Position numbers and translations under genes: made by a program. Positions 4,549-18,422 of a stretch of DNA of 40,732 nucleotides are shown piece by piece; position 1 is the first letter of the stretch, and every line of letters starts with the position of its first letter. The notes under the pieces are model-generated. The model was given only the letters and a program-made list of their open reading frames with translations, had not been told where the DNA came from and made no database searches. The stretch comes from a virus. Where the stretch lies: the UHGV virus genome UHGV-0045958; one strand, written 5' to 3'.

Positions 4549-4606
4549 AAAAAGGGCGGCAGAGCAGTCACGGAGTAAAACTGATACCGCCAAACGTCAC
4601 CAGAAA
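4549..4606 (-). ncRNA. dicF: DicF small RNA (ftsZ-targeting sRNA) with intrinsic terminator
   Basis: Minus-strand sequence 5'-TTTCTGGTGACGTTTGGCGGTATCAGTTTTACTCCGTGACTGCTCTGCCGCCCTTTTT-3' matches the recalled DicF sequence, ends in a GC stem plus U-tract, and lies immediately upstream of dicB. Confidence 0.8.
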
Positions 4607-10559: not shown

Positions 10560-10741
10560 TAGAATGACTGCGGGTGCTTGAGGCTATCTGTCTCAGGCAT
10601 GAACACCAAAAGGCAGATAGAGAAAAGCCCCAGTTAACATTACGCGTCCTGCAAGACGCTTAACATTAATCTGAGGCTCAATCTATGAACGGCAAATCTA
10701 GGTTAGCCTCTTACGTGCCGAAAGGCAAGGAGAAGCAGGCT
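10560..10741. promoter_or_regulatory. hok mRNA leader with in-frame mok-like upstream start (ATG 10685); expected location of an antisense Sok-like RNA
   Basis: Inferred from hok-family type I toxin-antitoxin organisation; the ORF from 10685 extends hok by 19 codons in frame; no Sok sequence was verified. Confidence 0.3.
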
Positions 10742-10897
10742 ATGAAGCAGCAAAAGGCGATGTTAATCGCCCTGATCGTCATCTGTTTAACCGTCATTGT
10801 GACGGCACTGGTAACGAGGAAAGACCTCTGCGAGGTACGAATCCGAACCGGCCAGACGGAGGTCGCTGTCTTCACAGCTTACGAACCTGAGGAGTAA
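10742..10897 (+). CDS. hokD: Hok/Gef-family type I toxin (HokD/RelF-like)
   Basis: 51-aa product MKQQKAMLIALIVICLTVIVTALVTRKDLCEVRIRTGQTEVAVFTAYEPEE matches recalled HokD (RelF); AAGGAG RBS upstream. Confidence 0.8.
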   Translation: MKQQKAMLIALIVICLTVIVTALVTRKDLCEVRIRTGQTEVAVFTAYEPEE

Positions 10898-13745: not shown

Positions 13746-13821
13746 GGCCCTTTAGCTCAGTGGTGAGAGCGAGCGACTCATAATCGCCAGGTCGCTGGTT
13801 CAAATCCAGCAAGGGCCACCA
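13746..13821 (+). tRNA. ileZ: tRNA-Ile2 (CAU anticodon; ileX/ileZ-like), possibly tRNA-Met
   Basis: 76-nt cloverleaf GGCCCUU..AGCUCAGUGGUGAGAGC..CUCAUAA..GGUCGCUGGUUCAAAUCCAGCAAGGGCCACCA with encoded CCA; very similar to recalled E. coli ileX. Confidence 0.8.
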
Positions 13822-14163: not shown

Positions 14164-14364
14164 ATTGTCTGGCTGCCGGAGAATTTGTTAAAAATTACAT
14201 CGCATGGTGAATCCCCCTCAGCGGCGGGGCATCTGGCAAAGTGTATGATCCAGAGAACATGCAAATTCAGTAGACAGGCTGAATTTACCGGGAGGCCCCT
14301 GGCACCATGCGACAGACAGAAATTAGGCTATACTTCAGCCCCTCTCCGGAGGGGCTTTTCTGTG
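14164..14364 (+). repeat. structured terminator-capped element, copy A (candidate sRNA or late-leader element)
   Basis: Shares with copy B a promoter-like 5' block, the gcatggtg/caccatgc long-range complement, a ccgggaggc block and an identical AGCCCCTC-tccg-GAGGGGCT terminator followed by a T-tract. Confidence 0.5.
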
Positions 14365-14632
14365 CAGGATGTGTCACAGTTTCCTGAATTCTGAGTACTG
14401 TCCTGTTACTCAGGGTGCTATATTTTCTGACGTGATGAAAGTCTGCCGGAAGGCGGAACGTATCGGAAATGACCCAGTAGAGAAAACGTTGACTCAGATA
14501 CCGATGCTGAGTTACCGGGAAACCGGCATCACATGACCGCTATCCTTCCAGGCTCGCTCCGGCGGGCCTTTTTACTGCAGAAAACAGTTTTCCCGTAAAA
14601 TGCCACGTTGCTCATAATTCAGGCTGGCGATT

Positions 14633-14830
14633 ATTGTCTGGCCGGCGGGAAGTTTGTTAAAAAATTTCGCATGGTGAATCCCCCTGTGCGGAGGGGTAAT
14701 CAGCGAGTAGGTATATGGGATAATCGCGGATTCAGGTGCTGGTACTGAATTCACCGGGAGGCACCCGGCACCATGCAATGGCACATAGCGCCACTCTCCA
14801 GCCCCTCTCCGGAGGGGCTGTTTATATTGA
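14633..14830 (+). repeat. structured terminator-capped element, copy B
   Basis: Imperfect duplicate of copy A with the same terminal hairpin (14800-14819). Confidence 0.5.
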
Positions 14831-14854
14831 TTTTGTCAGATGTGAGTAAACTCC

Positions 14855-15190
14855 TTATGGACTTTGTTGTTTTAGTCCATAAGGACATATTTGCAGAATG
14901 CAACGGTTATTAAAGCATTCATTCAATACGTTATCTGTATTTGTAGGGCATTCCTGGCTGTTTTTGATTAAATTCCAGAATGTTTTATTGAATGGTACTA
15001 CGTTGTAAATGGTTACAGGTAGCACTTTGTTATTGAGCATGATACCTGTGTGAGTCAGTGTAAATATACTTTCAGGAGGTAAGAAAGCATCCGATTGATA
15101 CCAGATTATTAATTTTACTTTACTCCATATGACTGAAAAAGATATTCCGCATGATGGCTGGATAACTGTATCAATTACAATCCACTTCAT
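14855..15190 (-). CDS. hypothetical protein (AT-rich moron, 111 aa)
   Basis: Reverse-strand ORF in a markedly AT-rich island; AAGGAAG RBS 5 nt upstream of ATG; 11-bp inverted repeat ccttatggact/agtccataagg (14853-14884) at its 3' end. Confidence 0.5.
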
Positions 15191-15450
15191 TTAGCTTCCT
15201 TGTTTATGCCTTGCTGGTGATGTTCTGAAAAGTATAAATGATATTTTTGAATATAAACCATAGAGCAGAATTATTTTTCTGATGTTGTTTATTGTTTATT
15301 TAAATGCAGGGTGGTTTATATCTCGTCTTGTAGTTTATCCATGCATATCTGCTTGATGATCAGGTTTCTATTTAAGGTATGGTTTTGTGTTTTTTCTGTG
15401 TTACATGTCTGGTATTTTAAAGAATTATTTTTCAGATGGTGGAAAGAACC

Positions 15451-15639
15451 ATGGCATTTAAACACTATGATGTTGTCAGGGCGGCGCCGCCGTCAGATCT
15501 TGCGGAAAAGCTGACACATAAACTGAAAGAGGGCTGGCAGCCGTTTGGTAGTCCGGTGGCCATAACCCCTTATACCCTGATGCAGGCGATTGCAGCAGAA
15601 GGTGATGTGGTGGTCAGTGGTGCAACTGAGCCGGAGTGA
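15451..15639 (+). CDS. small hypothetical protein upstream of the holin
   Basis: 62-aa product MAFKHYDVVRAAPPSDLAEKL...; GGAAAG RBS-like sequence 7 nt upstream of ATG 15451; track ORF starts at 15436. Confidence 0.5.
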   Translation: MAFKHYDVVRAAPPSDLAEKLTHKLKEGWQPFGSPVAITPYTLMQAIAAEGDVVVSGATEPE

Positions 15640-15946
15640 TACTACGTCATCGTACTGGCCCGGCATTCCAGACCATAAAAGACGGTCTGGCAGTGGGACT
15701 AAATGCACTGACGCTGACGGATATTACCAAAAATGCAACGTATGGCGTTGAGATAGAAAGTCTGGTGCTGGAGATAAATACACCGGCATCATCATAAAAA
15801 GTGAGCCAGTCAAATGGAAGGTATCGTTAAACTCACCGGTAGTGTCAGTGGATCGTCTGAGACGCTTGCATGAGTTATCAGAGCCATCAGTAGTTAACTG
15901 GTGGCTTTTTTATTGTTGTCAGCTTCCGGATAACGGGAGACGGGGT

Positions 15947-17603: not shown

Positions 17604-17897
17604 TTATTGTGAGCAATACACACGCGCTTCCAGTGGAGTATAAATGCCTAAAGTAATAAAACCGAGAAATCCATTTACGAATGTTTGCTGGGTTTCTGTT
17701 TTAACAACATTTTCTGCGCCGCCACAAATTTTGGCTGCATCAACAGTTTTCTCCTGTCCAATTCCCGAAACGAAGAAATGATGGGTGATGGTTTCCTTTG
17801 GTGTTACTGCTGTCGGTTTGTTTCCAACAGTAAACGTCTGTTGAGCACATCCTGTAATAAGCATTGCCAGAGCGGCAGAAAACAACATTTTTTTCAT
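17604..17897 (-). CDS. bor: Bor lipoprotein (serum resistance)
   Basis: MKKMLFSAALAMLITGCAQQTFTV...EARVYCSQ is near-identical to recalled lambda Bor; 97 aa from the internal Met of the track ORF. Confidence 0.85.
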   Translation of the reverse strand: MKKMLFSAALAMLITGCAQQTFTVGNKPTAVTPKETITHHFFVSGIGQEKTVDAAKICGGAENVVKTETQQTFVNGFLGFITLGIYTPLEARVYCSQ

Positions 17898-18422
17898 CTT
17901 ATTATCCTGCATTGTTAAAAACGGCAGAATCCTATGTGACAACAATTAAACGATAGTTAAATGGATTGATGAAAATTAAAACTATATAGGTGGATGCTCA
18001 GCCTATTGGAGGTAGTCAGGATTTGAATGTCAGTCTGTTGTCGGCATTCTGGCAATGCAATTTGGATAAAGCGGGGATTAAAAAGATAGAGGCGAGCCGG
18101 TCAGGTAGAAATGAATCAGGCTCAAAGTGAAGCGGAAAAGGTCTGTGGCACAAGCTGATGCAGCCATAATTACAGCCTGATGATTTGTGGAATGAAACAT
18201 GTTGAACCTCCTTAATTGATGTTATTCGAGTGATGAAGGCATTCTGTCCTTCTATAGTGTCCAGTAAATCAAACAGGAAACTTGTCCAACGTGTTGGACA
18301 AGCCTCTCCATTAGTGAGTTGTATTGATCACAACTCTACAAAGAATTCATTACTGGGTAGATGAAAATAGTTTCACTATGAATGGAGGAGGCTATGTCGG
18401 TGGCTTCTTCATTGGAGTACAT

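Follow-up and report, generated by a model that had tools for sequence, protein, structure and literature searches.

The locus considered here raises the question of which gene occupies a short AT-rich island between Q and the lysis genes of a lambdoid prophage, how this gene is expressed and what its product does. The window, i.e. the whole stretch of DNA that was analysed, comprises 40,732 nt (UHGV virus genome UHGV-0045958). Between positions 14855 and 15440 the GC content is 0.323 as opposed to 0.503 across the whole window, only 0.02% of the 586-bp windows are equally low in GC, and the GC minimum of the whole window begins at 14847. An earlier note on this DNA, made from the sequence alone, had described the island as AT-rich relative to its flanks, and it is indeed the lowest-GC stretch present. 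The features that define the island and its left and right borders are:

14172-14365, plus strand: first copy of the STnc100 sRNA (Rfam RF02076, 138 bits)
14641..14829, plus strand: second copy of the STnc100 sRNA, left border of the island (Rfam RF02076, 132.5 bits; terminator scan; fold)
14855..15190, minus strand: coding sequence read here as iraL, 111 amino acids and stop codon (ORF list, NF007393, 8TWD, identity to CFT073 iraL, WP_001333560.1)
15436..15797, plus strand: internally deleted nanS-p (sialate O-acetylesterase), right border of the island (Pfam DUF1737, E 4e-17; PGAP 'incomplete')

According to the ORF list, the reading frame at 14855..15190 is the only one of at least 100 amino acids that overlaps the island, which confirms its description as the island's one convincing ORF. 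It starts with ATG, has a GC content of 0.339 compared with 0.298 in the upstream region 15191-15435, and encodes 111 amino acids including five cysteines (residues 14, 81, 92, 97 and 102), where several had been noted before. As also recognised earlier, it runs counter to late transcription, its strand being opposite to that of the RusA, Q, holin, lysozyme, Rz and terminase genes.

Judged from sequence comparison, this ORF is in all likelihood iraL, a prophage-encoded paralogue of IraM whose product would serve as an anti-adaptor for RssB, stabilise RpoS and be expressed from the lysogen. The protein scored 162 bits against the NCBIfam model NF007393 'anti-adapter protein IraM' (cutoff 121), with residues 1-110 covering profile positions 1-113 of 114, and phmmer aligned its residues 1-78 with chain A of PDB 8TWD, which is IraM 1-78 bound to RssB (E 8.7e-32). 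In uropathogenic E. coli CFT073, the product of locus c1429, to which Hryckowian et al. (2014, mBio; PMC4045071) gave the new name IraL, is identical at 109 of 111 residues (98%), the differences being V25I and I99T. At the nucleotide level, 332 of 336 coding positions (98.8%) and 129 of 133 positions of the promoter segment from -100 to +33 (15191-15323; 97.0%) are shared with CFT073. Both values exceed the thresholds by which iraL was assigned in that study, namely at least 95% identity to CFT073 in the coding region and at least 96% in the promoter/upstream regulatory region (PMC4045071). In addition, CFT073-like flanking genes and the collinearity with the prophage of strain M217 described below place the gene in a lambdoid prophage at the potB island and not beside e14; the attachment site itself falls just outside the window. 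The view that the protein belongs to no recognisable family and is of unknown function is therefore no longer tenable, since clear homology to a characterised family, named beforehand in the earlier note as incompatible with it, was found.

The gene is no novelty, and many genomes already carry an annotation for it: it was characterised in 2014, and the exact protein has the RefSeq/PGAP entry WP_001333560.1, 'anti-adapter protein IraM', in a locus that is 100% identical. A stretch of 1,101 bp is identical in many complete E. coli genomes, and at least 80% of this stretch is present in 1,362 of 5,426 of them. Other family resources are less consistent. A Pfam-A hmmscan of the ORF, of K-12 IraM and of two homologues returned no family, even at E<=10, in contrast to precomputed tables in which nearly every homologue carries the label PF11183 (PmrD); this discrepancy probably reflects differing model versions or thresholds. 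Among the PHROGs, only phrog_4407, labelled 'unknown function', was matched.

The product name in RefSeq/PGAP and the name of the NCBIfam subfamily could also be taken to mean that the gene is an orthologue of K-12 IraM proper (YcgW/ElbA), the RssB anti-adaptor induced by Mg2+ starvation through PhoP/PhoQ (structure 8TWD, PMC10844676), with binding mainly to RssB's C-terminal domain. We consider this very improbable. NF007393 is a subfamily model and not an equivalog, and the identity to K-12 IraM is 63% overall (51 of 78 residues over the 8TWD domain) as opposed to 98% to IraL; CFT073 iraL and K-12 iraM are themselves reported to share 67% nucleotide identity (PMC4045071). The two proteins agree in family, fold, the receiver-domain contact residues discussed below, P66 and four C-terminal cysteines, but K-12 IraM has 107 amino acids and lacks the C-terminal QQSP extension. 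Furthermore, the upstream regions of the two genes are not alignable and the genomic context differs; because the promoters are unrelated, the window gene is not a PhoP-regulated iraM of the K-12 type. With 1211412 as the annotated right end of e14, the K-12 gene (MG1655 1211413-1213107 locus) sits just beyond that cryptic prophage. Its neighbour ycgX encodes a DUF1398 protein, as does ydfO in the late region of the CFT073 prophage, which suggests a separate lambdoid remnant at K-12 iraM. The icdC pseudogene follows the end of e14, and the literature places K-12 iraM 'on e14'.

The contact residues known from the crystal structure allow a closer comparison of the two proteins. In the IraM-RssB complex, a PmrD-like beta-barrel is docked on the alpha4-beta5-alpha5 face of the receiver domain, on the linker and on the C-terminal domain, and this docking excludes sigma-S (PMC10844676). 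In the window protein, the five cluster I residues in contact with the receiver domain of RssB (I4, I6, W22, K26 and I42) are all identical to those of IraM. Clusters II and III, through which IraM touches RssB's linker and C-terminal domain (PMC10844676), are substituted: three of five residues are identical in cluster II, in addition to T13S and L75I, and two of four in cluster III, in addition to H63N and I64V, with P66 identical. These substitutions, which also argue against K-12-type IraM, together with the intact cluster I would fit the report that CFT073 IraL, unlike K-12 IraM with its contacts to both domains, binds only RssB's N-terminal domain (PMC4045071).

The AF2 model of the protein, built from an alignment of 15 sequences, is of low confidence (pLDDT 52.8; residues 76-111, which include the Cys-rich tail, below 50) and contains seven strands and a helix at 69-77. 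A Foldseek search with this low-confidence model gave 8twd_A as the best match (E 5.8e-7, TMt 0.73), followed by PmrD 4hn7, with no other significant match. The PmrD-like fold, the PF11183 label on the homologues and the position typical of a moron within a prophage could point to a target other than RssB, i.e. to a connector for another phosphorylated response regulator or to a superinfection-exclusion or defence factor. Of the readings considered here, this one is the hardest to credit. Binding to RssB was demonstrated for the 98%-identical CFT073 protein by bacterial two-hybrid assay and copurification (PMC4045071), and the receiver-domain contact residues are fully conserved. There was also no match to a PADLOC defence model, and a defence or exclusion role is therefore unsupported. 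PmrD itself, a PhoP-activated connector that protects phospho-PmrA, resembles the window protein in its unusual beta-barrel fold and in being a small protein that binds a response-regulator receiver domain; it differs in its target PmrA and has no Cys-rich C-terminal tail, and the window protein, at 14% identity, does not belong to PmrD.

For the gene read as iraL, the following course of events can be proposed. In the lysogen, iraL would be transcribed from its own sigma-70 promoter within the AT-rich island, and the N-terminal PmrD-like beta-barrel of the product would bind the response-regulator-type adaptor RssB and sequester or lock it. RssB bound in this way would no longer deliver RpoS, the sigma factor of the general stress response, to the protease ClpXP, and the stabilised RpoS would pre-arm the general stress regulon, in CFT073 already during exponential growth. 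In CFT073, IraL raised both the level and the stability of RpoS in unstressed log-phase cells (PMC4045071). The elements on which expression would depend are:

15195..15201, minus strand: Shine-Dalgarno sequence AAGGAAG, 4 nt 5' of the ATG (read from the sequence)
15191..15223, minus strand: putative 5' UTR of 33 nt (homology to the CFT073 5'-RACE end)
15231..15257, minus strand: putative sigma-70-type promoter with a 15-nt spacer (sequence; hexamers assigned in this analysis)
15258..15435, no strand: AT-rich upstream regulatory region (GC about 0.30) between iraL and the nanS-p remnant (composition, repeat scans)

The strong ribosome-binding site AAGGAAG proposed before is present at 15201..15195, 4 nt before the ATG. 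The CFT073 counterpart reads AAGGAAA (difference at 15195), and its spacer reads CCAA where the window has CTAA (difference at 15193). The 5' end of the CFT073 iraL mRNA was determined by 5' RACE on lysogens in log phase (ACATCACCAGCAAGGCATAAACAAGGAA..., PMC4045071), and the -10 and -35 elements in that strain resemble the sigma-70 consensus (PMC4045071). By homology to this end, the window allele would start at 15223, and a start at this position would therefore leave a leader of 33 nt behind a -10 element TATACT at 15236..15231. The corresponding -35 element is TTTATA at 15257..15252. With a promoter of its own on the strand opposite the late operon, the gene would thus be a moron, a lysogenic-conversion gene that the lysogen expresses. 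The earlier proposal of an independently expressed moron is right in this sense, i.e. as an independently transcribed, AT-rich accessory gene on the opposite strand in the interval between Q and lysis; it draws on CFT073, where 5' RACE mapped the start site of transcription from the 97%-identical promoter region and the product is functional. That the window allele itself is expressed and active is what we infer by analogy.

Two differences from CFT073 within this promoter bear on that expectation. The -35 element carries a C-to-T change at 15253 (TTTATA instead of TTTACA, which leaves four of six consensus positions), and position -1 (15224) is T instead of C. They could mark a weakened or silent allele similar to 'iraL2', in which the coding sequence is intact, a -35 mutation and H-NS-type silencing reduce expression, and the lysogen gains little from the gene. 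The iraL2 copy of JJ1886 likewise has a point mutation in the -35 element, the consequence of which was flagged as uncertain by its authors, who do not know whether that copy is expressed (PMC4045071). The upstream GC content of about 0.30 would be typical of horizontally acquired DNA that is silenced, and iraL mRNA or protein of CFT073 is thermoregulated, being higher at 37 °C than at 23 °C (PMC12890032). On balance we regard a silent allele as unlikely, though as a more serious alternative than the two weighed above. The ORF is intact with only two amino acid changes, the -10 element TATACT and the Shine-Dalgarno sequence are retained, and TTTATA with its four of six matches is common: in a seed-restricted megablast of 5,426 complete E. 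coli genomes, the TTTATA allele was found in 284 and the CFT073 allele with TTTACA in 308, so that TTTATA makes up about half of the iraL-type promoters in these genomes. An active iraL allele remains the preferred reading.

Further control of the promoter is suggested by the rise of iraL mRNA or protein in a fur mutant (PMC7157518) and by the rise at 37 °C, both of which point to additional regulation of the AT-rich promoter; the window promoter may be subject to silencing or thermoregulation. Compared by eye, the promoter region matches the Fur-box consensus at about 10 of 19 positions, in AT-rich DNA. Farther upstream, a direct repeat resembling a PhoP box with one mismatch (TGTTTATTGTTTATTTA, 15286-15302) is located 63-79 nt upstream of the inferred start site and is the one upstream element that would favour a K-12 IraM orthologue. 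However, matches of this kind occur at chance level, with 0.43 expected per window and at least one in 35 of 100 shuffles. The 89%-identical allele retains the -10 element, a TTTACA -35 element and the start-site motif, but lacks about 45 nt farther upstream, among them the PhoP-like repeat and the outer arm of an inverted repeat. The latter, a perfect 10-bp repeat (ATATAAACCA / TGGTTTATAT, 15251-15260 / 15312-15321), surrounds the region upstream of the -35 element, with the PhoP-box-like repeat between its arms; it is not above chance in AT-rich DNA and is not conserved.

At the other end of the gene, an inverted repeat had been noticed, which is present in a somewhat different form:

14852..14885, minus strand: perfect 12-bp hairpin covering iraL's final 10 codons together with its stop codon (repeat scan, fold)

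The repeat comprises 12 bp instead of the 11 bp given before, and it encloses the stop codon. Its arms at 14852-14863 and 14874-14885 are separated by a loop of 10 nt, and the RNA folds with a dG of -17.5 kcal/mol (z = -4.6 compared with shuffles). A terminator scan of the minus strand found nothing, and because no U-tract follows 3' of it, the hairpin does not qualify as a canonical intrinsic terminator. It is degraded in the alleles with 89% and 76% identity, where no compensatory substitutions accompany the decay, and is probably no conserved functional element. Probably it either stabilises the 3' end or is incidental, and it is specific to the iraL clade. The intrinsic terminator of the second STnc100 copy (14799-14820 and T-run) lies 35 nt past the iraL stop codon in convergent orientation. 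A transcript reading through from iraL would overlap this sRNA's 3' end in antisense, and a partial 'hypothetical protein' called by PGAP overlies the same STnc100 copy (14641-14829).

The surrounding genes are arranged in the order RusA, Q, tRNA, DUF3927, two STnc100 copies, iraL (minus strand), deleted nanS-p, holin, DUF1327, lysozyme, Rz and iss/bor (minus strand). An equivalent local order is found in the potB-island prophage of CFT073, to which the left arm of the window is 99.8% identical, and strain M217 has a prophage abutting potC with which the window shows 99.9% collinearity and in which PGAP names the gene IraM. The nanS-p remnant at the right border consists of a DUF1737 N-terminus (15436-15639, 67 amino acids) and a C-terminal ORF of 53 amino acids (15636-15797), residues 19-49 of which align to amino acids 610-640 of the 645-amino-acid NanS-p of phage 1717. 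Besides its integration as a lambdoid prophage at potB/potC, the CFT073 prophage shares with the window the opposite orientation of iraL and a truncated nanS-p, and its IraL shares the length of 111 amino acids, the QQSP tail, the stop-codon hairpin, the -10 element and the start-site motif. The two differ after Q, where CFT073 has an IS200 and three tRNAs (Ile, Arg, Arg) and the window has one tRNA and no IS200, and in the head module, which is of the HK97 type in the window and of the lambda type in the CFT073 prophage.

Members of the IraM family also occur in Stx2a and Stx2c phages (phage 1717 gp43, phage 2851), with 72-76% amino acid identity to the window protein. Here too, the gene runs against late transcription and occupies the place directly upstream of nanS-p; it has a GC-rich hairpin on its downstream side, and its promoter is similar, with TATAAT as the -10 element. 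In contrast to the window, the gene is located immediately downstream of stxB, nanS-p is intact, and most copies lack the QQSP tail and the hairpin seen here. In the literature searched, no functional characterisation of these Stx-phage genes was found. The earlier placement of the island at a site equivalent to that of stx is only approximately right; the gene lies in the accessory interval between Q and lysis, in a slot that adjoins the stx slot and is not identical with it, because the family gene of the Stx phages coexists with stxAB and follows directly after stxB. At the five related loci compared, the IraM-family genes with 59-89% identity all occupy one slot, from Q, a methylase gene or stxAB to nanS-p, on the opposite strand.

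In all homologues of the IraM/IraL/RssC family, the C-terminal tail contains four invariant cysteines in the motif CP-x9-10-C-x4-C-x4-CP[YF]G, which corresponds to residues 81-105 of the window protein (14858-14950, minus strand) and is kept down to a Salmonella homologue with 35% identity. For the crystallisation of 8TWD this tail was removed, and it is described as flexible (PMC10844676). No role of the IraM tail involving zinc, another metal, redox chemistry or the cysteines was found in the literature searched. Conceivably it serves as a zinc- or redox-sensitive module governing the anti-adaptor's stability or activity. Similarly, the TTTATA allele may, for example, stay off in log phase and be switched on only by 37 °C, iron limitation or prophage induction. 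That both hold together, i.e. that the TTTATA/AAGGAAG allele is regulated differently from the CFT073 allele and that the tail is a zinc or redox module, is a speculative combination to which we give rather low odds.

As a discovery, the gene carries little weight, as it was named and characterised in 2014, the crystal structure of its paralogue is available and the exact protein is annotated in RefSeq. It is, however, a good textbook example: a moron carried by a prophage rewires a core circuit of the host, the proteolysis of RpoS. Of more general interest are the fixed slot of the IraM-family genes on the opposite strand between Q/stxAB and nanS-p across lambdoid and Stx phages, and the gradation among the homologues found. 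In 2014, iraL and iraM were reported as discrete classes without overlap (PMC4045071), whereas the identities to the window protein found here (99, 89, 76, 72-74, 71 ... 52%) form a gradation from 52% to 99% that fills the gap between these classes. Together with the two iraL promoter alleles, which are about equally common, the slot and the gradation could help to explain differences in RpoS between strains. If regulation is indeed specific to the allele, lineages would differ in their basal RpoS set-point according to the prophage allele they carry.

Several other small genes and RNAs were located in the window. The single tRNA after Q (13746-13821, plus strand) has a CAT anticodon and is assigned to Met by ARAGORN and to Ile, of the lysidine type, by PGAP. 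The serum-resistance lipoprotein gene iss/bor (17604-17945, minus strand) is likewise AT-rich and on the opposite strand, and follows Rz. The DicF sRNA (4554-4605, minus strand) adjoins dicB, and hokD has its sok antitoxin RNA at 10572-10747 on the plus strand.
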